A stretch of 32,000 nucleotides of DNA from Propionibacterium freudenreichii subsp. freudenreichii (GCF_000940845.1 NZ_CP010341.1:2340001-2372000), one strand, 5' to 3'; counted from the first letter of the stretch, positions 8,806 to 24,508 are shown. Notes: generated by a model from the letters alone, not told the origin. Translations and numbers: made by a program.

Positions 8806-8850
8806 CGGCGCACACACCTGCTCGGGAGGCTGTTGGGCAAGGAGGTCACC

Positions 8851-9816
8851 ATGACCACGCACCCGCAGTTCACCCGCCCCGTCGACGCAGAGGCCGCACC
8901 CCTGCATGCAGCGCGCACCTCGAGCACCGACATCGCCGTCGACAGCGCTCGTCCGGCCGGCATCGCCGCCCACACCAGCCCCACCGGACACACCGCGGCC
9001 ATCGGTCAGCTGGCCGAGGTCCGTCAACAGCGGGGCACGCCCACCCATGACGGAGCCATGATCCTCCAGCGCGCCGCTCAGCCAACCCGGCCGGGCACAC
9101 GACGCGCGGCCCGTCCCACCGAGGCACCCCTGACCCGCATCAGCGCGGGCACGCGGGTCTCCAGCGCCGACCCGGTGGTCGACGCGCTGCGCACCGAGTG
9201 GCAGGGATGGCGCGACCAGCCCCTCCCCGACGCATGGCGCTGCGCCTGCCCCGAGCTGGCGCAGGTGCCCAGCTTCCGGCAAGCACTCGAGGTGGCCTGC
9301 CTCGACGATGTCGCCGCCTTCCTGGTGATCGCCTGCCAGGGCGGGGGACGCCGCGCCGGCCGCCTGCTCGTCCAGGCACTCTTGCCACGACTGGCCGCGC
9401 AGGCCTCCCGTGACCGCCGCCACGAGGTGGGCGACTATGTCTCAACGCTGTGGGAGCTGCTGCACGACTTCCCCATCGAGCGTCGCACCCATGCTGTGGC
9501 CACCAACCTGGTGCTCGACACCCGCAAGCGCCTGCACCGTGCCGCGGGACGGGAGGTGCCCTGTTCGCAACCTCCCGAGCCACCCACCCCACCAGCCAGC
9601 AGCAGCCGGGAACGCGCCGCGGTGATCATCGACCTGGCGGCCCGTCGCGGACTCATCACCGCACCCAGTGCCGAGGTGCTGCGCAGCGTCTACCTGTACG
9701 GCCTGTCGGGACGCGAGGCCGCCGGACGACATGAGATGTCCGAGGACATGGTGCGCTACCGGTGCAGCTCGTCGGTGAAGCGCCTGCGCCGGCACATGAG
9801 CGATCTGGCGGGTTGA
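8851..9816 (+). CDS. Sigma-70-family-like protein with a long low-complexity N-terminal extension
   Basis: ORF 8791..9816. Start at ATG 8851 with AAGGAGG upstream. The C-terminal HTH resembles sigma region 4 (AEVLRSVYLYGLSGREAAGRHEMSEDMVRYRCSSSVKRLRRHM). The central segment (LLVQALLPRLAAQASRDRRHEVGDYVSTLWELLHDF) resembles region 2. About 140 aa of N-terminus is probably disordered. Confidence 0.6.
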   Translation: MTTHPQFTRPVDAEAAPLHAARTSSTDIAVDSARPAGIAAHTSPTGHTAAIGQLAEVRQQRGTPTHDGAMILQRAAQPTRPGTRRAARPTEAPLTRISAGTRVSSADPVVDALRTEWQGWRDQPLPDAWRCACPELAQVPSFRQALEVACLDDVAAFLVIACQGGGRRAGRLLVQALLPRLAAQASRDRRHEVGDYVSTLWELLHDFPIERRTHAVATNLVLDTRKRLHRAAGREVPCSQPPEPPTPPASSSRERAAVIIDLAARRGLITAPSAEVLRSVYLYGLSGREAAGRHEMSEDMVRYRCSSSVKRLRRHMSDLAG

Positions 9817-10074
9817 GCGGCCCGACACGCCAAGAACTTCAGAAGAATCTCAACCGGTTCTTGAGACTCCGCCACGCGTACCGGGCGCCAGATCCTGAGA
9901 GCGGGTCCAAAACTGAGAGCCAATTCTCACGTTCTGTTCATGTGTGTGTAGCATCGGACCAAGGTTGAGGGCTGATGCAGCACTCATTTCCCCGCACACA
10001 GCAGTCGCCGGGGGAATCGAGCAGAGCCGACCCACAACCGTCGTGAGGGTCCCCGGACCTTCACCCATAGACGC

Positions 10075-10120
10075 CCAGGGGGCTGTTGGGGGTGACCAGC
10101 AGCCCCTTGGTGCTTTTCTC
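10075..10120 (+). terminator. Strong intrinsic terminator
   Basis: CCAGGGGGCUGUUGG-GGGUGA-CCAGCAGCCCCUUGG: a 15-bp stem including G.U pairs and a 6-nt loop, followed by UGCUUUUCUCC. Only the + strand has the U-tail. Confidence 0.7.
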
Positions 10121-10236
10121 CTCCATGTCGTGCATCCCCTCGCCGACTGATGCCCCGCGTGCGCCGGCGGCAGCGCGATACGATTCGGATGCTCTCAGCG
10201 CCGACCCGTGCAAACCAATCGTTCGAAGGGGAGTAC

Positions 10237-11577
10237 GTGGAATTCACCCAACGACTGCGCCGACTGTGGCGCCATCGTGCGTTCCGACGCCTCACGCTGG
10301 TGAGGCTGTTCTCCCAGACCGGCGACGGCACCGTGCAGATCGGCATGGCGTCCTATCTGCTGTTCAGCCCGCAGAGCGCCACCAGCGCCTGGGCCGTGGC
10401 GGGGGTGCTGGCGCTCACGATGCTCCCCTACTCGCTGGTCGGGCCGTTCGTCTCGTTGGCGCTCGACCGCTTCCCGCGGCAGCGCATCTCACTGCTCGTC
10501 GACACGGTGCGGGCCATCTGCTCGGTGGTGCTGGCGATGATGATCGCCAACCACCTCACCGGTGCCGGCAGCCAGGTGGCACTGATGCTCCTGCTGCTGG
10601 TGATGCTGAGCCTCAACCGCTTCTCACTGGCCGGCCTGTCGGCCGGGCTTGCCTACACGGTGGACGACGATGAATACCTCGATGCCAGTTCGATCATGCC
10701 GATGATCGGGCCGGTGGGCATGATCATCGGCGGTGGTTCGGGCGGGGCCATCCGGCTGTTCGCCGCCGACCCGCTGGGCATTGACGGCGCCAATGCGCTG
10801 ATCTTCGGGGTGGGCGCCCTGTTCTTCTGCCTGTCGGTGGCCACGTTGTGGCGCATCCCGAGGGCCGGGCTGGGCCCCGACACCCCCGACCACCACGGCT
10901 CGGCACGCGAGGTGGCCGCCGGGCTGGTCGACGGCTTCCGTCACCTGATGGCACACCGTCCGGCATGGTTGGCGATGGCCACCGAGGTGGTCGTGCGACT
11001 CGGCTACGGCCTGCTCATGGCGTTCGTGATCGTGATCTACCGCCACCATTTCTTCCCGAATGCCGACCAGCTCAACCTGGCGATCTTCGGCATCGGCATC
11101 TGGTTCCTGGTCAGCGGGGTGGGCTTCGCCCTGTCCGGAGTGATCTCGGTGCCGATCGCCAACCACCTGGGCGTGCGCTACTGCATCATCGCGATGCTGG
11201 TGGTGATGGGCGTCTCGCAGGCCGTGGTGGGCACGGTGTTCTGGGCGCCGGCGCTGGTGGCCAACGGCTTCATCATCGGCCTGGCCGGCCAGTCACTGAA
11301 GGTGCAGGTGGACACCGTGGTGCAGGCCCACATCGCCGACTCGCACCGCGGCCGGGTGTTCACCATCTACGACGTGGTCTACAACGTCGCCACCGTGCTC
11401 GGTGCCGTGATCGGCGCGCTGCTGCTCGCCCCCGACGGGGTAAGCCCCGCCCTGACGATCGGCGCCGGCGTGTTCTACCTGCTTGCCGCGCTGGCGTTCA
11501 CCATCGGATCCCATTCGCTGGGCAATGCCACCTTCAACAAGGGCACCCGCGCGGTCTCGCCGGTTGAGGTGCCCTGA
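10237..11577 (+). CDS. MFS transporter
   Basis: ORF 10150..11577 with about 12 hydrophobic segments. N-terminus EFTQRLRRLWRHRAFRRLTLVRLFSQTGDG...LDRFPRQR is typical of the MFS_3/EntS-like group. Start at GTG 10237 (GAAGGGGAG upstream); ATG 10189 is an alternative. Confidence 0.85.
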   Translation: MEFTQRLRRLWRHRAFRRLTLVRLFSQTGDGTVQIGMASYLLFSPQSATSAWAVAGVLALTMLPYSLVGPFVSLALDRFPRQRISLLVDTVRAICSVVLAMMIANHLTGAGSQVALMLLLLVMLSLNRFSLAGLSAGLAYTVDDDEYLDASSIMPMIGPVGMIIGGGSGGAIRLFAADPLGIDGANALIFGVGALFFCLSVATLWRIPRAGLGPDTPDHHGSAREVAAGLVDGFRHLMAHRPAWLAMATEVVVRLGYGLLMAFVIVIYRHHFFPNADQLNLAIFGIGIWFLVSGVGFALSGVISVPIANHLGVRYCIIAMLVVMGVSQAVVGTVFWAPALVANGFIIGLAGQSLKVQVDTVVQAHIADSHRGRVFTIYDVVYNVATVLGAVIGALLLAPDGVSPALTIGAGVFYLLAALAFTIGSHSLGNATFNKGTRAVSPVEVP

Positions 11578-12167
11578 TGGGCCACATCCTGTCGTCGGCG
11601 TTCACGCTGTTCCTGGTGATGGACCCGTTGGGCAATATCCCGCTGTTCCTCACGGCGTTGCGCCATGTGCCGGCGTCACGACGCCAGAAGGTGCTCGCCC
11701 GCGAGTTGTTGATCGCCCTGGTGATCATGGTGATCTTCCTGCTTGCCGGACGCGGCCTGCTCGCCGTGCTGCACGTCACCCAGCCCGCGCTTGCGACGGC
11801 CGGGGGCCTGATCCTGCTGCTCATCGCGGTGCGGATGATGTTCCCCACCCCCGAGGCCTCGCTACGGGAACGCACCTTCGAGGAGCCGCTGATCGTGCCG
11901 CTGGCGGTGCCCTACACGGCCGGGCCCTCGGTGCTTGCCATCGAGGTGATCATGATCAACCAGACGCCCGACGCCATGCCGGCGCTGCTCGCGGCGGTTG
12001 GCTTCGCCTGGTTGCCCACTGCGCTGATCCTGTTCTTCGCCGGATACCTGCACCACTGGTTGGGCGAGCGGTTCCTCACCGCCATCGAACGCCTGATGGG
12101 CATGATCCTGATCATCGTGGCCACGCAGATGCTCATGGGCGGCGTGAAGGAGTTCTTCGGCTTCTGA
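11577..12167 (+). CDS. MarC-family (UPF0056) integral membrane protein
   Basis: MGHILSSAFTLFLVMDPLGNIPLFLTAL... is the family's signature N-terminus. The start overlaps the MFS stop (TGATG). Confidence 0.85.
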   Translation: MGHILSSAFTLFLVMDPLGNIPLFLTALRHVPASRRQKVLARELLIALVIMVIFLLAGRGLLAVLHVTQPALATAGGLILLLIAVRMMFPTPEASLRERTFEEPLIVPLAVPYTAGPSVLAIEVIMINQTPDAMPALLAAVGFAWLPTALILFFAGYLHHWLGERFLTAIERLMGMILIIVATQMLMGGVKEFFGF

Positions 12168-12177
12168 GGCGTCCGGC

Positions 12178-15100
12178 TCATGCCAGCCGTGCGCGGGCCT
12201 GGCCCTCCATCACCTCCTGCAACAGTTCGACGGTCTCGTCCTGCAGGTCGACGCCCAACAGCCGTGCATGGCGGGTGATGTGCAACACGAGCCGCTCCAC
12301 CTCGAACCGGTTGCCGGCCAGGTGCTCGGAGCGCAACCGCAGGCGCAGCAACATCTCGTCCTCCGGGGCGGCGCTCAATGCCCGTGCCGCAGCCCACCGG
12401 GCGAGGTCGACGTTCCCGGCGGCCAGGCCGCGTTCCCCCAGGGTGACCCCGATGTCGCGGATGGTGCACACCATGTCGGTGCGCAGTTCCTCGGCCCAAC
12501 GCCATTCGCCGGGTGCCGCGTCGGCCAGTGGCGCGCCACGCACCATCGACAGGGCGGCCACCAGGGCCTCATCGCCGGCCTTGTTGACGCCCACCGAGAT
12601 CAGCAGCTGCAGCTGCTCCCAGTCGGAACTGACGCCGGGATGCAGCGCGATGTGGCCGGTGTAGGCATCGGGCAGATAGGGCTCGCCGGCCTCGTCGGCC
12701 CCCAACCAGGCACGCAGCCGCGACATGTTCGAGCGTCGGGTGGTGTCGGCGATGAGCAGGTCGCGTGTCATGCGCACGGCGTTCGATCCGGGATGGTGCA
12801 GGATCCATGCGCAGTATTCCTGGCACTGGCGCACGGCCCGGCTGGGCTGGCGTCCCCGGGTGTTGACCAGCTCAACCGGCCCCAGGATCTTGAGGAAGGG
12901 TGCATCTATCGGCGGCGCAAGCACGGTGGACTCCTCCGGTAATGAGGTGGCGGGAACGGTGGGTAGGGCGACGAGCGGCACATCCGCGCCGGCGGGTGGG
13001 CCGGCATGGGGGTCGCCGTCACCGTCGAAGCGCCACCACCACGCCTCCTCGTAGTCGGTGTCGTCCGCGGCGTCGAGCAGCTCGACGATGGCCCGGCGTG
13101 CCGGCGGCATCACCAGGTCGGGGGTGAACTCGGTGCCCCGCCAGCGGGCCCGGTCTTCGCCCAGTACGAGCGGGCACTCGTGCGCGTCGTCGTGGCAGAC
13201 CACCGCGATTCCCAGGCGCCGCAGCGCCTCCGGACTCTCGGTGCATGGGTCGTGCAGGAAGAACACGGCGGGCAACCAGGCGTCGCGCAGCTCCGGGTCC
13301 AGGCGCAGGACGTCGGCGTCGCGATCGGGGGGCAGGTTTCCGCTGCGGTGGGCGACCAGGGCCGCCAACCGCGCCGCCAGGTCGTCCTCGCTGGCCGCGA
13401 CGAGCAGGTTCGGTGCTTCGAGGCGTTCCAGCCAGCCACAGTCGGGTGGCACATGCACTTCGGCGACGGCCTGGTTGGCCGACAGCTGCACCGCCATGGC
13501 GGCGAACAGGCCGGTCACCAGTTCGGTGTCGGGGGAGCTGACCGCCAGCACCCCCAGGGATGCGAGGTCCAGGCGCACCGGGTCGTCCCCGGCGACGCCC
13601 AGCTGCACGGCCCCGCCGCCTGCGTCCTGCGGGATCAACCCACCGGGGCCCAGGTCGTCAGGGGCCGGGTCGTCAGGGTCCATGTCTTCAGGGCCCATGT
13701 CGTCTGGGCCCGGGCCACCGGCCTCGATGTCGCCACGGTGCGGGACACCATCAAGGCCCCCAGTGGCCGGATCAATCACCGAAGGGTCGCCACGGTCGCC
13801 AGTGCTGAGGCGTCCGACCGGCTCGTCCGGCCATGATCGATCAAGGGACGAGCTCCGGGCCCCGGGGCGGGAGATCTCGAGGACATCGGCCACATCGTCC
13901 GCGCCGGGCGCGCCGGGCGCGCCGTGCATGCCCCGCACCGACCCGGGCGACGCCGAGACCGCGGCAAGGGCCGCTCCGGCGCGGGCGCTGTCTGCACCCA
14001 CGGCGTGGCGGCGGCGTCCCAGCGGACGCGCATTGAGCTGCCAGCGACGCCGCAGTCCCAGCACGCCCAGTACGGCAGCGGCGGAGGCCGCCCCGATCGG
14101 GCCCACCAACGAGAGCACCTGATTGCGCACATCGCGCTGGCTGCTCAACACCGCTCCGTCGCGCGCGGCCTGCTGAGCGGGTTCCTCACCGGTCGCCGAT
14201 TCCGCCACTCCCGTCCAGCGCGCGATGTCCGAGGCGCCGGCCTCGTCTGATGACGCCTCGCGCGCGGAGGTCTCCTCGCCGGAAGACCCCTGCGATGCGG
14301 CGTCGTGCCCCTCGCCGGCGGATTCGCTCGCAGGCCCGTGCGCGCGTGCCGTGCCGGAACTCGCGTCGGCCACGGCATGGTCCCGGGATTCCTGCTCCCC
14401 GGCCGCTGGGTCGGCATCTGCTCCCACGCCACCGGCCCGGGCCACCTCGTCCGGCGCTGCTGCGTGGGCGTCGCCGCCTGCGTTTCCGGGCACCACGGCC
14501 CGAGCCCCGGTCCCTGTCCCGTCAACCAGTTGGAAGTCGGCACGCTGGGGGCCGGCCGGCTGTGAACCGGCCGTTGTGGCGGGCCCCTGCCCCGGTGCCA
14601 CCGCGGGCAGCACCAGGCGCTGTCCGGGGTGGATCAGGTCGGGTTGTGGCACCTCCCCCGCGTTCGCGGCGGCCAACAGGGGCCACTGCGCACCGCCACC
14701 CAGATGGGTCTCAGCCAGCTGCCACAGCGTGTCGCCCGGGGCGACGACAACATCGCCGCCGCCATGGCCGGCACCCGATGGATCCGGCGACGCGGGTGGC
14801 TCAGCGGGCACTGCCGCTTCCCCGTTCCCGCCCGCATCCGGCTGTCCGGCTTCGTCGGCCTGCCCCGTTCCGGTCGCTGGCCCAGCATCATCTGACAACC
14901 CGGCATCATCTGACAACCCAGCATCATCCGAGAACCCGGCGCCTTCCGGCGACCCTGGATCATCCGGCGACCCTGCATCGAGGGATGGCTCCGCCGACTC
15001 GTCCACACCGTCGTCGTCCGTCACGATGGCCGAACCATCCGGACCGCCGTCGGACAGGACGGCCACGCCGTCCGGATCGTCCTCGTCAGACGGGGCGTGC

Positions 15101-15888
15101 GCCCCGAACTCCTCATTGAGCAGCTGGACGGTCGAGTTGGCGACGGCCCCTTCGGATGCGTGCGATCCCTCGGGAACCGCCGTGTCCTGCAGGGCGTCGG
15201 GCACCGTCGCGCCGGGAATCTCGATCATCACGCCCACGGGCAGGGCGTCCACGGCGGAAAGCCCCAGCGTGGCGTTCGCCCCGACGATGTCGCGCCACTG
15301 TTCCCCGGCGCCGTAGTAGTGCTCGGCCAGGGTCCACAGGTCGTCACCGGAGACGATCTGGTGCCACTGGGAATCGGCCCGAGGGCTTGTTGCTGCCGAG
15401 TCGGTACGGGAATCCCGTGACGGTGCTTCCTGCGCATCTGCTGCGGCCAGGGGCGTCGCAGCCGCCGGCCCCTCCCCCGCTACTGACTCCGCAGACACTG
15501 CGGCCGACGTGGACGACACCGAGGCACAGGGCGCGGAGTTCGTCGCAGCCGATTGCACGCCGATCAGCCCGGCGATGGAGGCGACGAGCACGGCGGCGGC
15601 CGGACCGAACAGCCGTGATCCCGGAAGGCGCACCGAGATGCGGCCATGGCTCACCGCCGACAGTGCCTCGGCCACCACCGAGCCGGTGAGCATTGCCCAC
15701 GCGACCCAGCCGAGCACGGTGAGGGCCAACAACACCAGGGAGCCGTCGTCGGGACGCGAGAGGATGCCCGACCACTCGATGCTGAACAGCAGGTCTCCGC
15801 GGCCCCAGTGCACCAGGGCGATGGCCCCGCCGGGGACCAACGCGAGCAGCACGAGCAGGGACGTGACACTCGACAGGACTCTTCTCAT
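12178..15888 (-). CDS. Membrane-anchored LysM x2 / winged-helix + BTAD (SARP-like) fusion protein, last gene of the tad operon
   Basis: 1236 aa. Three N-terminal TM segments (approx. aa 5-27, 50-75, 93-113). LysM-like segments: HQIVSGDDLWTLAEHYYGAGEQWRDIVGANATLGLSAVDALPVGVMIEIPG (DNA 15211-15363) and VVVAPGDTLWQLAETHLGGGAQWPLLAAANAGEVPQPDLIHPGQRLVLP (DNA 14605-14754). Fourth TM VLSLVGPIGAASAAAVLGVLGL is followed by RRRWQLNARPLGRRRH. The C-terminal 239 aa (DNA 12181-12897), FLKILGPVELVNTRGRQPSR...MSRLRAWLG...DWEQLQLLI...EWRWAEELR...LLRLRLRSEHLAGNRFEVERL, fits OmpR-type wHTH plus BTAD. ATGA overlap with the upstream tadE-like gene. Confidence 0.85.
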   Translation of the reverse strand: MRRVLSSVTSLLVLLALVPGGAIALVHWGRGDLLFSIEWSGILSRPDDGSLVLLALTVLGWVAWAMLTGSVVAEALSAVSHGRISVRLPGSRLFGPAAAVLVASIAGLIGVQSAATNSAPCASVSSTSAAVSAESVAGEGPAAATPLAAADAQEAPSRDSRTDSAATSPRADSQWHQIVSGDDLWTLAEHYYGAGEQWRDIVGANATLGLSAVDALPVGVMIEIPGATVPDALQDTAVPEGSHASEGAVANSTVQLLNEEFGAHAPSDEDDPDGVAVLSDGGPDGSAIVTDDDGVDESAEPSLDAGSPDDPGSPEGAGFSDDAGLSDDAGLSDDAGPATGTGQADEAGQPDAGGNGEAAVPAEPPASPDPSGAGHGGGDVVVAPGDTLWQLAETHLGGGAQWPLLAAANAGEVPQPDLIHPGQRLVLPAVAPGQGPATTAGSQPAGPQRADFQLVDGTGTGARAVVPGNAGGDAHAAAPDEVARAGGVGADADPAAGEQESRDHAVADASSGTARAHGPASESAGEGHDAASQGSSGEETSAREASSDEAGASDIARWTGVAESATGEEPAQQAARDGAVLSSQRDVRNQVLSLVGPIGAASAAAVLGVLGLRRRWQLNARPLGRRRHAVGADSARAGAALAAVSASPGSVRGMHGAPGAPGADDVADVLEISRPGARSSSLDRSWPDEPVGRLSTGDRGDPSVIDPATGGLDGVPHRGDIEAGGPGPDDMGPEDMDPDDPAPDDLGPGGLIPQDAGGGAVQLGVAGDDPVRLDLASLGVLAVSSPDTELVTGLFAAMAVQLSANQAVAEVHVPPDCGWLERLEAPNLLVAASEDDLAARLAALVAHRSGNLPPDRDADVLRLDPELRDAWLPAVFFLHDPCTESPEALRRLGIAVVCHDDAHECPLVLGEDRARWRGTEFTPDLVMPPARRAIVELLDAADDTDYEEAWWWRFDGDGDPHAGPPAGADVPLVALPTVPATSLPEESTVLAPPIDAPFLKILGPVELVNTRGRQPSRAVRQCQEYCAWILHHPGSNAVRMTRDLLIADTTRRSNMSRLRAWLGADEAGEPYLPDAYTGHIALHPGVSSDWEQLQLLISVGVNKAGDEALVAALSMVRGAPLADAAPGEWRWAEELRTDMVCTIRDIGVTLGERGLAAGNVDLARWAAARALSAAPEDEMLLRLRLRSEHLAGNRFEVERLVLHITRHARLLGVDLQDETVELLQEVMEGQARARLA

Positions 15889-16442
15889 GGCCTTCGCTCC
15901 TTGTAGGTGTCCAGCCGCGACACGGCATGGCCGGTGGCTTCCAGGGTCCCGGGCATCGCCAGCACGAGGTCCGAGAACGCGACCCGGCAGGTGACGTCGA
16001 CGCCGATCTCGCCGGAGCGGCCCGCCGCCAGGGAGAAGGCCGAACCGTCGACCTGCACCTCGGGGTCGACACAGTGGCTGGACACGGCGTCAAGGTCGGC
16101 GGCGATGGCCGATCGGGCGGCCTGGACGGCCTTGTCGTGGGTTGCGGCAAGGCTCGCTGCCCGGGCACCGGCCGCGGCGGCGTCGTGCACCTGGGCACGC
16201 ACCGACCAGATGCGCCACCCGGCAGTCATCAGGGCGATGAACAGGACGATTCCGGGCACGATCACCACCACTTCGATGCTCACCGCTCCCCGCTCGCCGT
16301 GCCGGCTCTCCCGCCGACCTGCCTTCCGACCTACCCACTCGCGCGGGCCGGCCCACCTGCGGCGTCCCGAGCTCTCCGGGGACGCGGCTTCGTGCACGGC
16401 CCTGCCGCCGACGTGTCGGCCGGTCCGGCCCAGCGTGTTCAC
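15885..16442 (-). CDS. TadE/TadG-like pseudopilin
   Basis: ...GERGAVSIEVVVIVPGIVLFIALMTAGWRIWSVRAQVHDAAAAGARAASLA: the G/AVSIE processing-type motif plus a hydrophobic helix is typical of the TadE-like domain. GTG start at 16442. Confidence 0.8.
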   Translation of the reverse strand: MNTLGRTGRHVGGRAVHEAASPESSGRRRWAGPREWVGRKAGRRESRHGERGAVSIEVVVIVPGIVLFIALMTAGWRIWSVRAQVHDAAAAGARAASLAATHDKAVQAARSAIAADLDAVSSHCVDPEVQVDGSAFSLAAGRSGEIGVDVTCRVAFSDLVLAMPGTLEATGHAVSRLDTYKERRP

Positions 16443-16507: not shown

Positions 16508-16930
16508 CTACTGCTCCTTCGCGCGGGTGGCCGTCACCGTGACGTCACCCAGCCCGACGTCGAGTGGCAACGGAACGGTCGCCTCGACCGTCACCGAGAT
16601 CTCCGTGTCACTCACAAGGGAGTGTGTGCGCACCGCCTCCAGTTGACCGGTCATGTCGGCAACGACCTTCTCTGCGGCATCCGAGGAGATCCCGGACAGG
16701 GCCTGCGTCTCGGCGGCGGTGAGCGCCGCCTGCTGCACGATGCTGCGTCCGTGCAGCCACACGCCGGCCTCGATGAGCCCGAGCACGATGAGCATCAGCA
16801 CCGGCGCGAGCACGCCCCATTGCAGTGATTCGCTCAGGCCACGCTCGTCGCGCCGACGTCGCACGACGACCGACCGCGACCCCCGGCGGGTGCGGCCGGC
16901 CGCCTCACTTGGGCATATTGGATTCGACAT
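16508..16930 (-). CDS. TadE-like pseudopilin
   Basis: ...RRRRDERGLSESLQWGVLAPVLMLIVLGLIEAGVWLHGRSIVQQAALTAAE. The maximal ORF start ATG 16930 overlaps flp by 26 nt; GTG 16864 (VRRRRDERG...) is an alternative start giving a canonical TadE N-terminus. Confidence 0.8.
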   Translation of the reverse strand: MSNPICPSEAAGRTRRGSRSVVVRRRRDERGLSESLQWGVLAPVLMLIVLGLIEAGVWLHGRSIVQQAALTAAETQALSGISSDAAEKVVADMTGQLEAVRTHSLVSDTEISVTVEATVPLPLDVGLGDVTVTATRAKEQ

Positions 16931-17129
16931 AGCTGCGCACGGCGGCGATCACGATGCCGGCAACCACCACGGCGCCGGCCAGCAGCACGGCGTTCTCGGT
17001 GGACTGCGACAGGCCACGTTCATCGTCGCGGGCGCCGTGGTCGTCGCGGACCGCCGGCGTGGGCATCGCGACGAATCCGACGACCAGGGCGGTGAGGCGG
17101 CTCAGTGTCTCCAGTGCTCTGCTTGCCAT
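16905..17129 (-). CDS. flp: Flp-family type IVb prepilin (actinobacterial type)
   Basis: AAGGAG lies 9 nt before ATG 17129. Translation: MASRALETLSRLTALVVGFVAMPTPAVRDDHGARDDERG|LSQSTENAVLLAGAVVVAGIVIAAVRSYVESNMPK. A Gly is followed by a short polar stretch with Glu and then a hydrophobic helix. Positioned between tadC and the tadE genes. Confidence 0.75.
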   Translation of the reverse strand: MASRALETLSRLTALVVGFVAMPTPAVRDDHGARDDERGLSQSTENAVLLAGAVVVAGIVIAAVRSYVESNMPK

Positions 17130-17213
17130 GTGGATCAACTCCTTGTGGGGGGCGACCCCGGCGGGTGCCGGGATCGGTGGGGATGGTTCAGGTCAATTCC
17201 GTGCGGGGCGCCC

Positions 17214-18125
17214 TCATGCCACACCGGCCAGGCGCATCAGGGGCGGCGCGATGAACGACAGGCCGAAGACCATCACCGGCAACGCCATCCACAACGTCAT
17301 GCGTTCGCTGACCTCCTGGGCCTCCATGCGCCCCGCACTGAGGTGGGCGTCGCGCAGTTCCTCCACGCGGGCGGCCAGCGCCTCGGTCAGTGAGGCGCCC
17401 TGCTCGTCGAGCTGCATGATGTCGGCGAGGTCCTCCAGGGGAGGTAGGCGCAGGTCGTGGGCCAGCCGCCGCAGGCCGTCCCAGGGCGGACGCTGTTCGA
17501 GTCCCGCCTGGGCCAGCACGCCACGCACCCGCCGGAAGATCGCCACATCGGACACCGATGCGGCTGCCGACAGGGCCTGGGTGGCGGAGCGATTGGCCAT
17601 GCGTTCCAGCATCACGAGGTCGAACAGCGTCAGCAGCGCCTCGTCGGCCTCGAACCGGGTGCGCTTCGACCCGGCCCGCAGCGACAGGTCGGGCCAGCAC
17701 CAGCCCAGTGCGCCCAGTGCCAGCGCCACCAACAGGGTGGGGGCACGCAGCGGCGAGCCCATCGCCGCGCTGACCGCCGTGACGATGGTGGGCAGCGCCA
17801 GGCCGGCCAGGCACAGCACGATCTTCTCGGCCATGAAATCGCCGATCGACCGGTCGCTGAGCTGCAGCATGCCTCGTGCGCGACGCCCCAGGGGCAGGTG
17901 CAGACGCGCATAGGCGTAGGCACCGAGGCGCTCCAGCGAGGAATCGGCGTCGCGCACCAGGTCTTCTTCGGGGCCCTGCCGGCCGGCCACGGTGCCATCC
18001 AGCGCGGCAAAGGCGTCGCCCATGCGCACCGGACGACGTGCCCAGCCGGCGAGCACGAGGAATGCGCCCAGTCCTGCCACGGCACCGGAGATGATCACCA
18101 GGATCGCTGGGTCAGGCATCGTCAC
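17214..18125 (-). CDS. tadC: Tad platform protein TadC (type II secretion system F family)
   Basis: Polytopic membrane protein with a T2SSF-like cytoplasmic domain. Follows tadB with a 14-nt overlap. Confidence 0.8.
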   Translation of the reverse strand: MTMPDPAILVIISGAVAGLGAFLVLAGWARRPVRMGDAFAALDGTVAGRQGPEEDLVRDADSSLERLGAYAYARLHLPLGRRARGMLQLSDRSIGDFMAEKIVLCLAGLALPTIVTAVSAAMGSPLRAPTLLVALALGALGWCWPDLSLRAGSKRTRFEADEALLTLFDLVMLERMANRSATQALSAAASVSDVAIFRRVRGVLAQAGLEQRPPWDGLRRLAHDLRLPPLEDLADIMQLDEQGASLTEALAARVEELRDAHLSAGRMEAQEVSERMTLWMALPVMVFGLSFIAPPLMRLAGVA

Positions 18126-19002
18126 CCCCGGCGGGGGCCAGCTCGACGCCGTCGCCCTGCAGGATGCGCTCCCGCTGCTCGGGCGTCGACATGCGGCGCA
18201 GCATCACCAACGAGCCCAGGTAGGCGGCCAACAGGCCGGCACCGAGCAGTTGGCCGGTCGGTGTGAGGTAGGGCGCCACATAGTCGGGGTTGAACACGGC
18301 CACGCCGACCAGCACCACGACGGTGATGAGCGTCACCTGACGCACCACGATGCGCGGTTTCGCCCGCTCGGTGGCGATCTCGCGCAATGACTGCAGGCGA
18401 CGCCGGGAGTGCTGGCCCAGTGCCCGCAGGGCGTCGCCGGTGCCGGTGCCACCGCGGCGGGTGGCCACGATGAGGGCGGCGATGATGGCGTCGGCATCGG
18501 GGTGGGCCAGGTCATCGGCCATCGCCCGCAGTGCCGAGGCGGTGGACCAGCGGGCATCGAGCCTGGCGATCAGCCCGTCGACGGGGGCCCGCAGCACCGG
18601 CGCCACCTGGTTGCGGGTGGCCCGGATTGCGTCGGGCACCGACTTGCCGGTGGACACTGATCCGATGAGCAGCCGCACCCACCGATCGCAGGCCTCCAAC
18701 ACCTCGACGTCACGGTTCGGGGGCGCCGACAGCAGGCCGGGCAGCACCAGGATCAACGCGGGCACGCCGCCGGTAACCAGCAGCGATCGTGTGAGCAGGT
18801 AGCCGACGAGCGCGCCGGCCACCGCCAGTGACCAGCTGATCTGTTGGGCACGGGTGGCGCCGTGCCACCGGGCGCGCACCAGCACCGGGATGCCCGGGCC
18901 CGAGACATCGCCACGACGACGCGGCCTGCGCACCAGCCCCTCCACCACGGCGAAGACACCGAAGATGGCGGCGGCACACAGCGCGACGAGGACCGGGTTC
19001 AT
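18112..19002 (-). CDS. tadB: Tad platform protein TadB (type II secretion system F family)
   Basis: T2SSF-type pattern (...DAIIAALIVATRRGGTGTGDALRALGQHSRRRLQSLREIATERAKPRIVVRQVTLITVVVL...). ATGA overlap with tadA. Confidence 0.8.
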   Translation of the reverse strand: MNPVLVALCAAAIFGVFAVVEGLVRRPRRRGDVSGPGIPVLVRARWHGATRAQQISWSLAVAGALVGYLLTRSLLVTGGVPALILVLPGLLSAPPNRDVEVLEACDRWVRLLIGSVSTGKSVPDAIRATRNQVAPVLRAPVDGLIARLDARWSTASALRAMADDLAHPDADAIIAALIVATRRGGTGTGDALRALGQHSRRRLQSLREIATERAKPRIVVRQVTLITVVVLVGVAVFNPDYVAPYLTPTGQLLGAGLLAAYLGSLVMLRRMSTPEQRERILQGDGVELAPAGGDDA

Positions 19003-20774
19003 CGCCCACGCTCCCGCGACGCCGGGTCGCCGGCGCTCCGACGATGGGTGGCCGGAGCGCCGGTGGGCTCCGCGAAGGGGGCCAGATCGTCGAGCAGGCC
19101 CTGGCCCGGGTCGAACACCTGCGGCTCACCGGTACGGGAGGTGGCGTAGACGAGGTGGGTGGTGGGCTGGCCATTCTCCATCGATCCGGTGAGTGCGCGG
19201 ATCTCGGAGATGAAGCGCTTGCGCACCCCGCCGCGCCAGGTGTCGTCCACCAGCGAGACATGCACCAGCAGGTGCACGTTGTAGGCGATCTGGCGATAGG
19301 CCTCGTCGAGGCGCAGCACACCGCCGGCCGCCACGCGTGCCGCGAGCCGGTCGATGGTGGATGCCGCTGAATGCGAGTGGGTGGTGGTCAGCGCGCCGGC
19401 GCCGGATTGCATGGCCTGGAGCATGGCGCCGGCCTCGTTGCCACGTACCTCACCGATCACCAACCGGGACAGGTTCTGGCGCAGGGCCTCGGGAATCAGG
19501 TCGGCGACCGTGTATTCGCCGATGCGGCGTCCGTCGACCACCTCGCCCAGGCCGATCTTGGCCTGCAGGGCCACCATGTTCTGACGGCGCGATTGCAGGT
19601 GGGTGAGCAGCTCGTAGTCGGTCTCCAGCGTGCCGAATCGCTCGGTGGCCGGGATCGCGCCCACCATCGCGCGCAGCAGCGTGGTCTTGCCGGCACCCTG
19701 GTCGCCGGAGATCACCACCGACTTGCGGGCCAGCACGCAGCGACGCAGCAGGTCGGCCACCTCGGTGGGCATCATCGAACCGTGGGCCAGTTGCTTGAGG
19801 CTCACCTCGGTGAGCAGGTGCTGACGGATGATCACCGAGGGACGATCGGCCAGCCCGAAGGCCACCGCATGCAGCCGGAACTTGTTGCCCAGCGCCACGG
19901 TGATGGTGGGGTGGGCGTCGTCGAAGGGCCGCGGCGGATCGGCGTTCTCGCCCAGGAAGCGCACGGCGGCCACGAGTTCGTCGTCGGAGTCGGCCACCGG
20001 GTCGAGCCGGGTGCGGCGCCCGTCGCCGAATTGGGCGAAGACGCAGTCGTAACCGTGGATCTCGATGTTCTCCGCCTCGGAGACCTCGAAGATCGGCTGC
20101 ATCCGTCCGTAGCCGAAGATGGCGTCCTCGACGGCCTTCACGTACCGCTGTTCCAGGGCGATCGGCCACAGGGCCCGGCCGGCGCGGTTCAGCTCGTCGG
20201 CGTAGTCGTGCACGGCGCGCCGGATCAGCGAGCGGCCCATCAGCCGGCGATCATCGTCGGCCATGCGTCGGTGGTGTTCCTGCTCCCACCGGGCCTGTTC
20301 GGCGGTGATGAGCTCGCTGATCGTGGACCGCAGCTGGGCGACGATGGACCAGTCAGTGGTTTGGTGGCCCGACGGGCCGGGGACACCGCCCGCACCCGGA
20401 CGCTGATTGTCGGCGGCCTGCATCGGCGTGCCGACGGGACGCCCAGCGGGCACCGTGCCCGGGGTCCGCACGCGGTGGGCTGCTCCTGCAGAGGTGGGGG
20501 CCGACTCGGATTCCTGCGGGACCCCACGCTGCGGGAGGTCCACCGGCTGCGTCCCGAGCGGTGAAGCGGACGCGGAAACGTTCGCCGGGGTCGTGACGAC
20601 CTGGTCAAGGAGCGACAGGGCGTCGGCCAGGCCACCGGGGGACGGGCCATCCCCCCGGTCAGGGTGCGGTGCCCCATCCCCCGCGTGGAGCGGTGGCGCA
20701 GCCTGCCCCGGACGAAGGAACGGAAGGGCTCGTCCCGGGCCAAGGGGCGGCAGATCGGACGCGCGGTGGGTCAT
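18999..20774 (-). CDS. tadA: Tad secretion ATPase TadA/CpaF with a Pro/Gly-rich N-terminal extension
   Basis: Walker A is VISGDQGAGKTTLLRAMVGAI. RLVIGEVRGNEA (Walker B/Asp-box region) and TTHSHSAASTIDRL (His box) are also present. About 190 aa of low-complexity sequence precedes the conserved core. Confidence 0.92.
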   Translation of the reverse strand: MTHRASDLPPLGPGRALPFLRPGQAAPPLHAGDGAPHPDRGDGPSPGGLADALSLLDQVVTTPANVSASASPLGTQPVDLPQRGVPQESESAPTSAGAAHRVRTPGTVPAGRPVGTPMQAADNQRPGAGGVPGPSGHQTTDWSIVAQLRSTISELITAEQARWEQEHHRRMADDDRRLMGRSLIRRAVHDYADELNRAGRALWPIALEQRYVKAVEDAIFGYGRMQPIFEVSEAENIEIHGYDCVFAQFGDGRRTRLDPVADSDDELVAAVRFLGENADPPRPFDDAHPTITVALGNKFRLHAVAFGLADRPSVIIRQHLLTEVSLKQLAHGSMMPTEVADLLRRCVLARKSVVISGDQGAGKTTLLRAMVGAIPATERFGTLETDYELLTHLQSRRQNMVALQAKIGLGEVVDGRRIGEYTVADLIPEALRQNLSRLVIGEVRGNEAGAMLQAMQSGAGALTTTHSHSAASTIDRLAARVAAGGVLRLDEAYRQIAYNVHLLVHVSLVDDTWRGGVRKRFISEIRALTGSMENGQPTTHLVYATSRTGEPQVFDPGQGLLDDLAPFAEPTGAPATHRRSAGDPASRERGR

Positions 20775-21808
20775 GGTCGGGGCCTCCCGGTTGCCAGCGG
20801 CGGGTCCACGGGGCCGGCCATCCGATCGCGAGCGCCCGGGGTGACGCCGGCGGACTGTACGGGTGCCCGGCCGATGCTCCCTGTCAGCGGGTCATGCGAT
20901 CGGGAGGTCCCCGTCGCGAGGTCACGGGAGGAATTCGGTGTGGCGATCACGCGGGCCGAGACGGCCGATGCCGCCGCACTGGCACTGCGCATGAATGAGC
21001 GCTCACGGAAGCGGCGCGGCTCGTCGCCACCCTCGCTGAGCACGGCGGCCTCCTCGGGCTGCCAGGCCATGTCGGCAACCACCGGCACGCCGAATTGGGC
21101 CTCCACGTCGCCATCGGAATAGGGCCGCGAGGGGCCCACCACGAGCAGCCCCAGCTTCGCCGCAGGCGCCAGGGCTGCCGTCCGCTCACGAAGGGGCGGC
21201 AGGTGGAGGCGGGCGGCGGCCAGTGACCGCAGTGAGCTCCGCACCACCATCAGCACCACGTCCGCGGCACCCAACAGCGCCGAAGGCAGGCCCTGATGGC
21301 CGACGCGCCCGGCATCCACGATCACGTCGACCCCGCTGCCGGCCAGGCCGGCGAGGGCCTCGGCGACTTCGGGCCAGACGGGATCGAAGACCGCGACCGA
21401 TCCCGGATGGGAGAACCCGGGCAGGAACTGCCGGGCGACGGGGCGGGACTCCGCCACGGCCGGGGCGCCGGGCCGCTGGTCGGCGATGGGCTGCCCCGTA
21501 GCATCGAACCGGCCCATGGCCTGGTCGGGAACGCCAGCCGATCCGGCGGGCGCGTCGTCCAGCAGGGAGACCGTGCGGTCCCACAACAGCGGGGCCACCG
21601 GACGCATCTCGCGGTGCGCCTGGGCAAGTTCGACCAGGCCGCGCGTGGCCAGCGGCCGTGCGCCGAGCCAGCCCGCCTGCACGGTCTGGGAGACATCGCG
21701 ATCAGAGTCGACCAGCAGCACATCGCGCGGCCAGCACAGGGTGAGTGCCAGGGCACTGGTGGTCACGCCGGGTGATCCGGTGGCGCAGGTGAGCAGGACG
21801 ATGGCCAT
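20771..21808 (-). CDS. tadZ: TadZ/CpaE-like (Ssd-like) ParA/MinD-superfamily protein with a deviant P-loop
   Basis: MAIVLLTCATGSPGVTTSALALTLCWPRDVLLVDSD...: GSPGVTT stands in place of the canonical KGGxGKT. Located directly upstream of tadA (ATGA overlap). Confidence 0.75.
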   Translation of the reverse strand: MAIVLLTCATGSPGVTTSALALTLCWPRDVLLVDSDRDVSQTVQAGWLGARPLATRGLVELAQAHREMRPVAPLLWDRTVSLLDDAPAGSAGVPDQAMGRFDATGQPIADQRPGAPAVAESRPVARQFLPGFSHPGSVAVFDPVWPEVAEALAGLAGSGVDVIVDAGRVGHQGLPSALLGAADVVLMVVRSSLRSLAAARLHLPPLRERTAALAPAAKLGLLVVGPSRPYSDGDVEAQFGVPVVADMAWQPEEAAVLSEGGDEPRRFRERSFMRSASAAASAVSARVIATPNSSRDLATGTSRSHDPLTGSIGRAPVQSAGVTPGARDRMAGPVDPPLATGRPRP

Positions 21809-22362
21809 CAGGCTGCCGTCCCGTGCACCACGACGAGACGTCCCGCCGCGGCCAGCGTCGCGATCCGCAAGGAGGCACCGGCCGGCACGTCCAGGTCGAA
21901 GTTCCAGGAGCCGTCGGACTGACGGCTCGGGGTGCCCACGATGGTGGCCGGCACGCTCAGCTGCTCAGCCCTGAAGCTGGCGTCATCGGTGGGCCCGGGG
22001 GCGGCCGAGATGATCACGGCCGAACCGGCCACAAGATCACCGGGAACGCGGCCGGCCACGAGGTGGACCCCCACGTGATGGCGCCCGGGACGCACGGTCT
22101 CCTCGCCCAGGGCGCTGGCCGGCACCAGCATGCCCTGCTGCAGTTCCACCAGGGCGGTGGTGCCGATCAACGTCGACAGCTGTTCGGCCCCGATGGTGGC
22201 GACGCCGGGCGCCGAACCGATGCTCGTGGTGCCCAGGTCGGCGCCGTCAATGGTGGCGCCACGCGGCACGGCGCGCACCATGACCACGACCTGGCGGGCG
22301 TCGGTTGCCTGGTGCCAGGCCACGGCGCAACCAAGTCCGCCGAGGCAGGCACAGAGCACGCC
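21808..22362 (-). pseudogene. cpaB: cpaB/rcpC-like Flp pilus assembly gene, C-terminal fragment (interrupted by the IS)
   Basis: Residual ORF ...G-VLCACLGGLGCAVAWHQATDARQVVVMVRAVPRGATIDGADLG... (TM helix then SAF-like domain). The reading frame continues upstream into the IS end with no start codon. Its 5' part lies at 23810-23902. Confidence 0.8.
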
Positions 22363-22370
22363 GATAATGA
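22363..22370. repeat. Target-site duplication (left copy) GATAATGA
   Basis: Identical 8-mer at 23810-23817, immediately flanking the IS ends. Confidence 0.75.
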
Positions 22371-23809
22371 GGGTCTTCTCAGATGAGGGTGTAGGTCGGC
22401 CGGGCGCGTCGGTCCGCAGATAGACGTCGAGGTCTCCCGACGATGGAGGTTCCTACGCCATCCATCCGAAAGACCTCGACGTGTCCGACGCTACCCCGCC
22501 GGCCGGCTTCGGCCGCCCTGACCTGACCGCCTTCGCTCGACTCGACGGCCTCGGTCTGAGCGTGACCGGACAACGACTTGAACCGGATCGTGCGGTCCTC
22601 GCGTGCCGCGTGGTGGAACCAGATCAGTGGTGCCGACGGTGCGGCAGCGAAGGCGCTGCTCGTGACACCGTGATCCGGCGGTTGGCCCACGAGCCGCTGG
22701 GCTGGCGACCGACCGTGCTGGAAGTTGTAGTGCGCCGCTACCGCTGTGCCGACTGCGGACACGTGTGGCGCCAAGACACCAGCGCCGCGGCGGAGCCACG
22801 CGCGAAGCTCTCGCGCACCGGGCTGCGGTGGGCGCTGGAAGGGATCGTGGTCGCACACCTCACCGTCGCCCGTGTCGCCGAGGGACTCGGGGTCGCGTGG
22901 GACACCGCCAACAACGCGGTCCTGGCTGAAGGCAAGCGGCTGCTGATCAACGACCCCACGCGGTTTGAGGGCGTGAAGGTCATTGGCGTCGATGAGCACG
23001 TCTGGCGCCACACCAGGCGTGGCGACAAGTACGTCACCGTGATCATCGACCTCACCCCGGTCCGCGATGGCGCCGGCCCAGCAAGGCTGCTGGACATGGT
23101 CGAGGGCCGGTCGAAGGCGGCGTTCAAGACCTGGCTCGCCGACCGCGACGACGCCTTCCGTGACGCGGTCGAGGTGGTCGCGATGGACGGCTTCACCGGG
23201 TTCAAGACCGCCGCTGCAGAGGAGATCCCGGACGCGGTCACGGTGATGGATCCCTTCCACGTCGTGCGCCTGGCCGGTGACGCCCTCGACAGGTGCCGGC
23301 GCCGGGTCCAACTCGCGATCCACGGGCACCGTGGGTTCAGGGACGACCCGCTCTACAAGTCGCGGCGCACGCTGCACACCGGCGCGGACCTGCTCACCGA
23401 CAAGCAGAGCGACAGGCTACGCGCGCTGTTCGTTGATGACGCTCACGTCGAGGTCGAGGCGACCTGGGGTGTCTACCAGCGCATGATCGCCGCCTATCGC
23501 CACGAGGACCGGCAACGTGGCCGCGAGCTCATGGAGAAGCTGATCACCGACCTCAGCGCCGGCGTCCCCAAGGTGCTCACCGAGCTCACCACCCTGGGCC
23601 GGACCCTGAAGAAGCGAGCCGCTGACGTGCTCGCCTACTTCGAACGACCCGGCACCAGCAACGGGCCGACCGAGGCGCTCAACGGACGGCTCGAACACCT
23701 GCGCGGCTCCGCACTCGGGTTCCGCAACCTGACCAACTACATCGCCCGAAGCCTGCTCGAGACCGGCGGCTTCAGACCCCAACTCCTACACCCCCGATTG
23801 GGATGAGCC
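22371..23809 (+). mobile_element. ISL3-family insertion sequence (1439 bp)
   Basis: Single transposase ORF. Terminal inverted repeats GGGTCTTCTCAGATGAGGGTGTAGG (22371-22395) and the reverse complement of 23785-23809, GGCTCATCCCAATCGGGGGTGTAGG, match at 18/25 positions and begin like typical ISL3 ends (GGCTCTT-like). An 8-bp direct duplication flanks the element. Confidence 0.88.
22481..23806 (+). CDS. ISL3-family transposase
   Basis: 441 aa. N-terminal zinc-finger pattern CRRCG...CADCGH, then VIGVDEHVWRH...YVTVIIDL...VVAMDGFTGFK...VMDPFHVV... and TSNGPTEALNGRLEHLRGSALGFRNLTNY, all characteristic of the ISL3 DDE transposase. The stop codon lies inside the right IR. Confidence 0.93.
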   Translation: MSDATPPAGFGRPDLTAFARLDGLGLSVTGQRLEPDRAVLACRVVEPDQWCRRCGSEGAARDTVIRRLAHEPLGWRPTVLEVVVRRYRCADCGHVWRQDTSAAAEPRAKLSRTGLRWALEGIVVAHLTVARVAEGLGVAWDTANNAVLAEGKRLLINDPTRFEGVKVIGVDEHVWRHTRRGDKYVTVIIDLTPVRDGAGPARLLDMVEGRSKAAFKTWLADRDDAFRDAVEVVAMDGFTGFKTAAAEEIPDAVTVMDPFHVVRLAGDALDRCRRRVQLAIHGHRGFRDDPLYKSRRTLHTGADLLTDKQSDRLRALFVDDAHVEVEATWGVYQRMIAAYRHEDRQRGRELMEKLITDLSAGVPKVLTELTTLGRTLKKRAADVLAYFERPGTSNGPTEALNGRLEHLRGSALGFRNLTNYIARSLLETGGFRPQLLHPRLG

Positions 23810-23817
23810 GATAATGA
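23810..23817. repeat. Target-site duplication (right copy) GATAATGA
   Basis: See 22363-22370. Confidence 0.75.
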
Positions 23818-23902
23818 TCAACCGCGGACTTCTGCGCGCACGCAACGACGGGACTGCCCGGCGTGTGAGCTCGGAAAGTGATTTGCGGGGAAATGCCACC
23901 AT
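23810..23902 (-). pseudogene. cpaB: cpaB/rcpC-like gene, N-terminal 31-codon fragment
   Basis: ATG 23902: MVAFPRKSLSELTRRAVPSLRARRSPRLIII, which then runs into the IS (…GSSQSGV*). Joined to 22362 downward it gives ...RRSPRLIIIGVLCACLGGLG..., a typical CpaB N-terminus (basic stretch then TM). Confidence 0.75.
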
Positions 23903-23977: not shown

Positions 23978-24508
23978 CTCAGATTTGCACCATTGTGGAC
24001 GACCGCATAGTTATCCACAGGCATTGACATCGACGAATTCAGGCGTGTCGCCGACCCCGGCCAACGAGGAACTAAACCTGCGTCCCCCAAGAGATTGATG
24101 GCATTCACCCTTGTCATCACCGCAATGACGCCCAGCGGGCCGGCGAACCACAGCGATGCCATTCATCGCGCGGCACGGGCCCGCTGAATCCCCTTGGGGG
24201 AAACCGGAAAGATTCCTGCCGGCACGACGCCGAATCACCGCCAGCGGCGACCATGCCGAACTTCAGCGTGCCCCGCTCATGGTTGACGCCGCACTGCGCC
24301 GGGGAAGCCCCGTGAACGGCCACTGGACACGGCGCCCACGCCCGCACGGCCAGCACCCGCCGCGCACCATCAACGACAGCGTCCGGCCGGGAATTCGCCA
24401 GCACCGCCCGGGATGGAAACGCGCCGTGGAAGGGGCCGGTCAGACATCTTCACCAGATCCGGAAAGGTGGAGAAAAGCGGCCCACCACTAGGCCTTTCAC
24501 CATGTTGG

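Follow-up and report, generated by a model that had tools for sequence, protein, structure and literature searches.

A LysM and SARP-module membrane protein encoded at the end of actinobacterial Tad pilus loci is a candidate tethered transcription regulator

We analysed a 32,000-nucleotide (nt) stretch of DNA from Propionibacterium freudenreichii subsp. freudenreichii (NZ_CP010341.1:2340001-2372000; the whole stretch is called the window below, and positions are counted from its first letter), with attention to the last gene of its Flp/Tad pilus operon. This gene, on the minus strand at 12178..15888, encodes a protein of 1236 amino acids (aa) that combines four predicted transmembrane (TM) segments, two LysM modules, an FtsK-like domain that appears catalytically dead, and a C-terminal module of the kind found in Streptomyces antibiotic regulatory proteins (SARPs), that is, an OmpR-type winged helix followed by a BTAD domain. 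The reading that we favour, tentatively and with somewhat less than even confidence, is that the protein is a membrane-tethered, cluster-situated transcription regulator with ToxR/CadC-type logic. We favour it because the SARP module is complete, is the most constrained part of the protein, keeps residues of the DNA-contacting type, and belongs to a family whose members are activators wherever they have been characterised. To our knowledge, all characterised proteins with a SARP module are transcription activators.

The C-terminal SARP module

The initial annotation had placed an OmpR-type winged helix and a BTAD domain at the C-terminus, and had named Pfam profiles for LysM, Trans_reg_C and BTAD as a check. 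On the window protein the LysM profile matched well (44.1 bits), whereas Trans_reg_C and BTAD were not detected by Pfam or NCBIfam, either on the whole protein or on its isolated C-terminal 260 aa; the sole borderline Pfam match in the C-terminal part was TPR_14 (E 0.024). The assignment nonetheless holds at the level of fold and in close homologs. An AlphaFold model of aa 745-1236, built with an alignment of 46 homologs, reached a mean predicted local distance difference test score (pLDDT) of 88.6 and showed two compact domains. When this model was compared with the PDB by Foldseek, the best matches were the SARP modules of AfsR (8k60, 8hvr) and EmbR (2fez, 2ff4), with E-values of 8e-7 to 4e-5. 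Target-normalised TM-scores for the AfsR chains were 0.64-0.66 over 256-263 columns and, because these columns span the full ~250-aa AfsR module, the winged helix and the BTAD domain are both matched.

The winged helix occupies aa ~997-1074 (12667..12900), where the order beta-alpha1-alpha2-alpha3-wing was modelled at pLDDT above 90. A profile of the SARP module alone returned matches to TPR proteins together with a weak match to the DNA-binding domain of CadC (5ju7, E 0.098). The TPR-like helical BTAD domain follows at aa ~1084-1236 (12181..12639). Over the corresponding region, BTAD (PF03704) exceeds the Pfam cut-off of 22.1 bits in several homologs: P0002 of P. australiense, 55% identical over the C-terminal part, scores 23.5, and P0005, P0056, P0059 and P0076 score 27.2, 29.5, 30.6 and 31.3 bits, while the Streptomyces, Kitasatospora and Sanguibacter members score 26-31 bits.

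Recognition helix alpha-3 lies at aa 1048-1062 (TRRSNMSRLRAWLG; 12703..12747) and is almost invariant in Propionibacteriales. The motif that overlaps it, T1050-RRSNMSRLRAWLG-1063, has 12 of 14 positions invariant among 24 Propionibacteriales sequences, and the helix retains R-[ST]-x-x-S-R-x-R. In AfsR, helix alpha-3 contacts DNA through R87, T88, Y89, S91, R92, R94 and K95 (PMC11301090). When aligned by motif, rather than by a computed superposition, the pattern R-S-N-M-S-R-L-R-A has counterparts to five of the seven, namely R87, T88, S91, R92 and R94. The classic 'ALWP' turn of SARPs is kept in the Streptomyces-type members.

The SARP module is also under strong constraint. When the domains are ranked by mean pairwise identity in a set of 25 Propionibacteriales sequences, the winged helix comes first (0.63) and BTAD second (0.58), ahead of the LysM modules (0.45-0.47), TM1-3 (0.41), the FtsK-like domain (0.30) and the spacers (0.20-0.28). 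Judged from the models and alignments, the module appears real and complete and looks functional, in an unusual setting: at aa ~997-1236 of a four-TM protein, it is neither soluble nor N-terminal.

Membrane topology and the LysM ectodomain

The predicted topology places the SARP module in the cytoplasm. A Kyte-Doolittle scan found four hydrophobic segments, at aa 8-26 (TM1, 15811..15867), 51-69 (TM2, 15682..15738), 93-111 (TM3, 15556..15612) and 591-609 (TM4, 14062..14118). Helices stand at the matching places in an AlphaFold model of aa 1-625 (2-28, 50-79, 91-116 and 573-620), and this 3+1 pattern recurs in nearly all of 90 homologs. LysM (PF01476) scores more than twice its cut-off of 20.9 bits, over two stretches at aa ~176-225 (15214..15363) and 381-428 (14605..14748); NCBIfam agrees. 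Both LysM modules were modelled at pLDDT above 90, with the rest of the chain up to aa 625 largely disordered. The domain order first read from the sequence, three TM segments, an acidic segment with two LysM modules and a fourth TM segment, is thus upheld by Pfam, hydrophobicity and the model alike.

The same is true of the orientation that had been proposed from positive-inside charge, with LysM outside and the DNA-binding end inside. Counting K+R against D+E residues gives 2 and 0 for the N-terminus, 3 and 1 for loop 70-92, 15 and 79 for the ectodomain (aa 112-590), and 7 and 0 for the 21 aa after TM4. The basic stop-transfer motif RRRWQLNARPLGRRRH on the cytoplasmic side of TM4 (aa 613-628; 14005..14052) contains R614, invariant in the family, and R621, nearly so. 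Together, the TM pattern and the charges predict an N-terminus inside, LysM modules outside and a C-terminus inside. TM1 may alternatively be a cleaved signal peptide; either way, LysM would be outside and the C-terminal half inside.

TM2 carries a pattern of its own. It is preceded by a conserved PDDGS loop, and W61, W64 and the following E74 are nearly invariant (aa 51-74; 15667-15738). Such conservation is unusually strong for a plain anchor and hints at an interaction within the membrane, for example with pilins or TadB/C.

The ectodomain also lends itself to another explanation, in which the protein has a structural role in the Gram-positive Tad machine, as a hub or anchor comparable to FimV/HubP or TsaP. 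LysM would hold the machine to the thick peptidoglycan layer, TadZ, TadA or other proteins would be recruited by the cytoplasmic pseudo-ATPase together with the TPR-like BTAD domain, and the winged helix would be re-used for protein binding, with no transcriptional output. We consider this possible, though on the unlikely side. The family profile does match TsaP (3jc8, E 2.5e-10), the type IVa pilus machine's LysM protein, and FimV/HubP share the layout of LysM, TM segment, acidic region and C-terminal TPR domain, as described in PMC12918733. Against a hub, the winged helix is the best conserved domain, with a recognition helix that keeps the Arg/Ser pattern of DNA-contacting residues. The characterised SARP-module proteins that we know of, such as AfsR (PMC11301090), are transcription activators, and working Tad systems exist without the protein (PMC4322843).

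Gene structure and position in Tad loci

The open reading frame is intact, running from an ATG start through 1236 codons to a stop in a window of ~70% G+C. Its start codon (15888-15886) overlaps the TGA (15887-15885) of the upstream tadE-like gene (15885..16442), the junction at 15885..15888 reading 'ccATGAgaaga', and a GGAG is located 8-13 nt 5' of the start. The genes 3' of it, a MarC gene (11577-12167) and an MFS gene (10150-11577), are convergent, and we therefore take the 1236-aa frame to be the last gene of the operon. This agrees with its earlier description as the terminal, ATGA-coupled tad gene. For the hub explanation, such a place as operon-terminal, translationally coupled partner of pseudopilin genes is a point in favour.

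The length of the gene raises the question of whether it is an artefact, two genes merged by a sequencing error or a decaying pseudogene. An insertion sequence disrupts the operon in the window strain (see below), so selection on the gene could be relaxed. We nevertheless give this explanation practically no weight. In 90 homologs the same architecture is colinear with that of the window protein, and it recurs in ~970 sequence clusters; AlphaFold modelled the domains with high confidence. It is 99% identical to, and colinear with, the 1227-aa protein P0001 of another P. freudenreichii strain, the sole gaps being two in-frame deletions of 6 and 3 aa. The frameshift or artificial joining that had been named as a possible flaw has left no sign, and an artificial gene fusion is ruled out by the colinear homologs and the strain protein.

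The gaps to P0001 coincide with repeats. The disordered acidic spacers contain in-frame tandem repeats at 13646-13731, 13900-13924 and 14881-14977, with periods of 15/45, 9 and 18/36 nt, and the difference from the 1227-aa allele amounts to a single 18-nt unit (LSDDAG) plus a single 9-nt unit. Because the difference consists of whole repeat units, repeat copy number varies between strains.

A survey of gene neighbourhoods, suggested when the gene was first described, was strongly positive. A genome scan with an alignment of the Propionibacteriales subset found at least 368 relatives, the best 80 loci all being from Propionibacteriales. In 60 of the 62 Propionibacteriales loci with enough flanking DNA, tad genes lie directly upstream (tblastn with the window Tad proteins), and the TadE-like match ends at most 21 nt before the extrapolated gene start in 32 of 36 related loci. 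One exception, L039, has tad genes with TadE undetected. The other, L024 (homolog at 8007-11156), is the one homolog with no tad genes in the 8 kb before it; its upstream neighbours encode a LuxR-type regulator and a protein with a PQQ beta-propeller, and dnaB lies ~4 kb downstream. L024 is a contig of a metagenome-assembled genome, and rearrangement is possible. Two gene orders occur, cpaB-tadZ-A-B-C-flp-tadE-tadE-X and flp-tadE-tadE-cpaB-tadZ-A-B-C-X, where X is the homolog of the 1236-aa gene; it stays last in both, whichever gene adjoins it.

The same place after the tad genes is occupied in eight loci from four other orders and from plasmids, in Kitasatospora, Sanguibacter, Streptomyces, Cellulomonas and Rhodococcus; the plasmid examples are Streptomyces pRVR1 (L087) and Rhodococcus pREL1 (L088). 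In one Streptomyces locus (L084), four opposite-strand genes stand between tadE/tadG and the homolog, and an A24 prepilin peptidase (TadV) gene follows directly 3' (13048-14085). The Cellulomonas homolog (L086) adjoins an integrase gene and a TrbL-like gene. By tblastn, relatives are present on 213 actinobacterial plasmid records, including 143 from Streptomyces, 28 from Rhodococcus and 6 from Cutibacterium, mostly annotated as 'LysM peptidoglycan-binding domain-containing protein'. When aa 745-1236 were searched exhaustively with HMMER, 971 clusters (50% identity) passed an E-value limit of 1e-10 and 263 passed one of 1e-30; the matches fall at the C-terminus of proteins of ~850-1400 aa. The presence of the whole tad module with this gene on plasmids suggests frequent horizontal transfer, perhaps with a link to conjugation.

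We conclude that the gene is a conserved, accessory part of Tad pilus loci in Actinobacteria. An accessory rather than a core role is suggested because the Tad clusters of Micrococcus luteus make Flp pili and mediate transformation without such a gene (PMC4322843).

The cytoplasmic tether and the FtsK-like domain

Between TM4 and the SARP module, the initial annotation had noted ~380 aa of cytoplasmic linker or domain. This region is not featureless. It begins with a flexible, Pro/Gly/Asp-rich tether of ~125 aa (aa 629-755; 13624..14004) that is poorly conserved (mean pairwise identity 0.28), and it then holds a folded domain of ~190 aa that had been overlooked (aa ~756-944; 13057..13623), modelled at pLDDT above 90. 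In the Foldseek comparison, a second set of PDB matches comprised TcpA (a conjugation coupling protein), EccC, FtsK, EssC and the EccC5 'DUF' domain, with E-values of 5e-4 to 1e-2 and a probability of about 1.0. The Foldseek output came without residue ranges, and these matches were assigned to aa ~756-944 because of three other points: the secondary-structure pattern, a weak FtsK match of the full-length family profile at the corresponding positions (E 0.039), and a motif, LVxLGxDxxGxxVxxDLxxxGxLxLxG, ahead of the site where FtsK has its P-loop. The Walker A sequence GK[ST] is absent from this domain in all 48 aligned homologs and, because of this loss, the domain is most readily read as a pseudo-ATPase.

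Just beyond it, at the start of a low-confidence linker, stands a nearly invariant Pro-Ala-Pro-Trp-Trp motif (family consensus 'TxPAPWW'; EAWWW in the window protein at aa ~949-952, ~13030-13045), which may be a docking peptide.

The fold bears on two alternatives to a regulator. With an FtsK-like fold but no Walker A, the domain is similar to the EccC DUF domain (8rin), which is of a scaffold type, as a hub would have it. The fold also raises the idea that the protein handles DNA as a partner of a Tad-based apparatus for DNA uptake or transfer, FtsK/TraB-like, holding peptidoglycan outside and DNA inside through its winged helix; this would explain its frequency on plasmids and integrative elements. 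Streptomyces TraB has TM segments, a long linker, an FtsK-like fold and a C-terminal winged helix, and FtsK and TraB are paralleled by the window protein in all these parts. The relatives on the 213 plasmids and the integrase and TrbL-like neighbours in Cellulomonas fit as well, as does the finding that Tad pili mediate transformation in M. luteus (PMC4322843). We nevertheless judge DNA handling to be very unlikely: with Walker A missing in 48/48 homologs there is no motor, the winged helix is of the OmpR/SARP type with BTAD rather than of the FtsK-gamma type, and the M. luteus transformation clusters are the very ones that do without this gene.

Search for a DNA target

A regulator of its own locus should leave a trace in the DNA: because the recognition helix is invariant, a conserved operator should show if the protein autoregulates. 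We searched 48 tad upstream regions (cpaB, flp). K-mer enrichment gave one strong motif, G-TT[G/A]TCCACA-G. With one mismatch allowed, the 9-mer TTGTCCACA occurs in 30/48 upstream regions versus 0/48 controls, and matches to a position weight matrix concentrate at three sites, one upstream of cpaB, one close to where tadA meets tadB, and one in the interval from tadC to flp (L002-L080). In many Propionibacteriaceae, a tad locus has the motif at up to three of these places. In the window, a motif scan finds a pair of such sites in the native tad promoter region (CTGTGGATAAC ... GTCGTCCACAA; 23986..24027, no strand assigned), the DnaA-box-like boxes of this promoter being GTTGTCCACAG. The motif is identical to the DnaA box of high-G+C Gram-positives, the actinobacterial consensus. 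With the same flanks, and often as a palindrome, it also lies 160-430 nt upstream of dnaB in nine loci (L024, L026, L037, L040, L041, L058, L061, L062 and L071), and from the motif down to the likely -10 there are ~40 nt instead of 8.

GTT[G/A]TCCACAG was accordingly rejected as a SARP site, as a DnaA box that lies upstream of dnaB, at the wrong distance from the -10, and is absent in the second gene order. On these grounds, the motif is probably to be attributed to DnaA or another dimeric factor rather than to the SARP module, and its distribution suggests that tad and dnaB are under common control, which may be linked to replication (DnaA?) or of another kind.

Several observations weigh against a regulator, this search among them. 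The only conserved cis motif is the DnaA box, found upstream of dnaB too, and tad loci with the second gene order do not have it, even though their homologs carry an identical recognition helix. A scan for direct repeats with 10, 11, 12, 21 and 22 nt spacing upstream of cpaB/flp in the 48 loci found no shared repeat. This weakens the case for autoregulation; it concerns the tad upstream regions and not targets elsewhere in the genome. The failure to find an operator in these 48 regions is, in turn, what a hub with no transcriptional output would predict. At the level of sequence, Pfam Trans_reg_C has no match on the window protein or on nine homologs, and PDB sequence and profile searches (with the C-terminal fragment, the full-length profile, the SARP-module profile and a Streptomyces-type homolog) never reach AfsR or EmbR; they gave only LysM and TPR matches, a weak FtsK match and a weak CadC match. 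It would be unusual for a structural operon to close with a translationally coupled regulator gene. The size of the protein, its LysM modules and its pseudo-ATPase look like those of a structural hub, and a scaffold or hub role fits the layout of LysM, acidic linker and TPR-like domain about as well. Finally, the literature that we searched contains no experiment on any family member. The two roles, regulator and hub, are compatible rather than exclusive.

The tad operon in the window strain

The remaining genes of the operon, all on the minus strand, extend upstream from the 1236-aa gene. The overlapping tadE-like pseudopilin gene scores just below the Pfam TadE cut-off (21.4 versus 22.9 bits), and a first tadE pseudopilin gene lies at 16508..16930 (36 bits). 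A small open reading frame of Flp size (77 aa; 16905..17138) is a candidate pilin, with a 74-aa gene called at the matching place in P. freudenreichii strain GCA_030235235.1 (L089). Then come tadC (17214-18125) and tadB (18112-19002), both matching Pfam T2SSF, the secretion ATPase gene tadA/cpaF (18999..20774; T2SSE, 6.6e-21), and a gene at 20771..21808 that is assigned to TadZ by position and has no Pfam match. The N-terminus of its product, TCATGSPGVTTSAL, resembles a degenerate ParA/MinD deviant Walker A, and the protein may, on this resemblance, be a second pseudo-ATPase of the operon.

The first tad gene, cpaB/rcpC, is split. Its 3' part with the SAF domain found by Pfam (21808..22370) is severed from its 5' part (MVAFPRKSLSELTRRAVPSLRARRSPRLIIIG; first ~30 codons, 23810..23902) by an ISL3-family insertion sequence on the plus strand (22371..23809). 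This element carries a DDE_Tnp_ISL3 transposase gene (22481-23806) and 25-nt imperfect inverted repeats (22371-22395 and 23785-23809), and is flanked on both sides by the 8-bp duplication TCATTATC; the site is uninterrupted in strain GCA_030235235.1. The native promoter and ~30 codons are thereby parted from the rest of the operon. Because the operon is cut off from its promoter in this way, expression of the whole tad operon in the window strain, the 1236-aa gene included, is doubtful.

Discussion

The features described above suggest how a membrane-tethered regulator could work. The LysM and TM part would sit in the wall and membrane beside the pilus machine and read the state of the wall, the pilin or the machine itself. 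The pseudo-ATPase domain could serve as an oligomerisation or docking module. The SARP module, still on its tether or set free by proteolysis, would bind DNA and RNA polymerase, so that envelope or pilus status would become transcription. We infer that the protein may be a one-component sensor that couples the state of the wall or pilus to transcription, as had been proposed when the gene was first noted.

A more specific version builds the protein into the Gram-positive Tad machine as an integral subunit that acts as its sensor. The conserved TM bundle and the LysM arms in the wall would monitor the pilin pool, the activity of the machine or strain in the wall, and the protein's own SARP module would directly activate promoters. 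We hold this to be rather unlikely. If true, a single protein would connect a type IV filament to transcription, with neither kinase nor second messenger, in hundreds of actinobacterial chromosomes and plasmids.

The initial annotation had stated that no functional description of this fusion as a tad component was known. This stands, in that our literature search found no functional study; the fusion itself had, though, been listed once. A table of the Tad locus of the P. acnes plasmid pIMPLE-HL096PA1 gives PAGK_2369 with 'LysM, BTAD', under the name TadB (PMC3666418), and this entry was the only mention found. No such protein is described in the papers on C. acnes Flp plasmids and on Tad-dependent transformation in M. 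luteus. The family is thus large and essentially unstudied, a new arrangement of known modules that is more general than was first thought.

Tad pili serve in gut colonisation by bifidobacteria, are plasmid-borne in Cutibacterium, and take part in DNA uptake in Micrococcus. Their anchoring and regulation in Gram-positives are poorly understood. Here, one widespread gene, whose database label is only 'LysM domain protein', unites a wall-binding ectodomain, an FtsK-like domain that appears dead, and a SARP activator module in its complete form. Should this module bind DNA, the range of SARPs would extend far outside antibiotic clusters, membrane-tethered winged-helix regulators, a small class, would gain a member of reversed order, and surface appendages would have a simple link to gene expression. 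If it does not, a transcription-factor module has been re-used as a scaffold of a machine.

Comparison with known systems

Among LysM proteins of pilus machines, FimV/HubP of the type IVa pili of Pseudomonas and Vibrio comprise LysM, a TM segment, an acidic region and a C-terminal TPR domain and are functionally tied to pilus machines and to ParA/MinD-like ATPases, according to PMC12918733. On that description, the window protein is alike in its extracytoplasmic LysM, membrane anchor, long acidic low-complexity regions and C-terminal cytoplasmic TPR-type domain. It differs in that FimV has one TM segment, no DNA-binding domain and a cytoplasmic acidic region. PDB and NCBIfam searches, which were not aimed at the TPR domain of FimV, gave no FimV match, and sequence homology beyond LysM was not detected. 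TsaP is alike in having a LysM module by which a type IV filament machine grips peptidoglycan; in contrast, it is periplasmic, secretin-associated and devoid of a cytoplasmic part, whereas Gram-positive Tad loci have no secretin.

FtsK/SpoIIIE, EccC/EssC, TcpA and Streptomyces TraB share with the window protein a RecA-like alpha/beta fold below a membrane anchor, and FtsK and TraB also end in a winged helix. Unlike these ATPases, the window protein lacks the P-loop lysine and serine/threonine in 48/48 homologs, and its domain is only ~190 aa long and would be non-catalytic, like the EccC DUF domain.

The SARP activators AfsR, DnrI, ActII-ORF4 and EmbR of M. tuberculosis are alike in the succession of OmpR-type winged helix and BTAD, in the SRLRxxLG end of the recognition helix, and in their cluster-situated genomic position. 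SARPs are soluble with an N-terminal module, whereas here the module is C-terminal in a 1236-aa integral membrane protein, and their sequence identity to the window module is only 17-24%. SARPs are tied to biosynthetic gene clusters and bind direct heptamer repeats overlapping the -35; here, the locus is a pilus locus, and no direct-repeat operator was found in the 48 tad upstream regions.

The resemblance to membrane-bound regulators of the ToxR/CadC type, to which the initial annotation had pointed, holds for the parts and not for their order. As in ToxR, CadC and TcpP, a cytoplasmic OmpR-type winged helix is combined with a membrane tether and a sensor domain outside. Those proteins have one TM segment; the window protein has four, with an additional BTAD domain and pseudo-ATPase, and with LysM in the place of the sensor. 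Its domains stand in the opposite order, the sensor at the N-terminus and the DNA-binding domain at the C-terminus, an arrangement that is possible because the number of TM helices is even.

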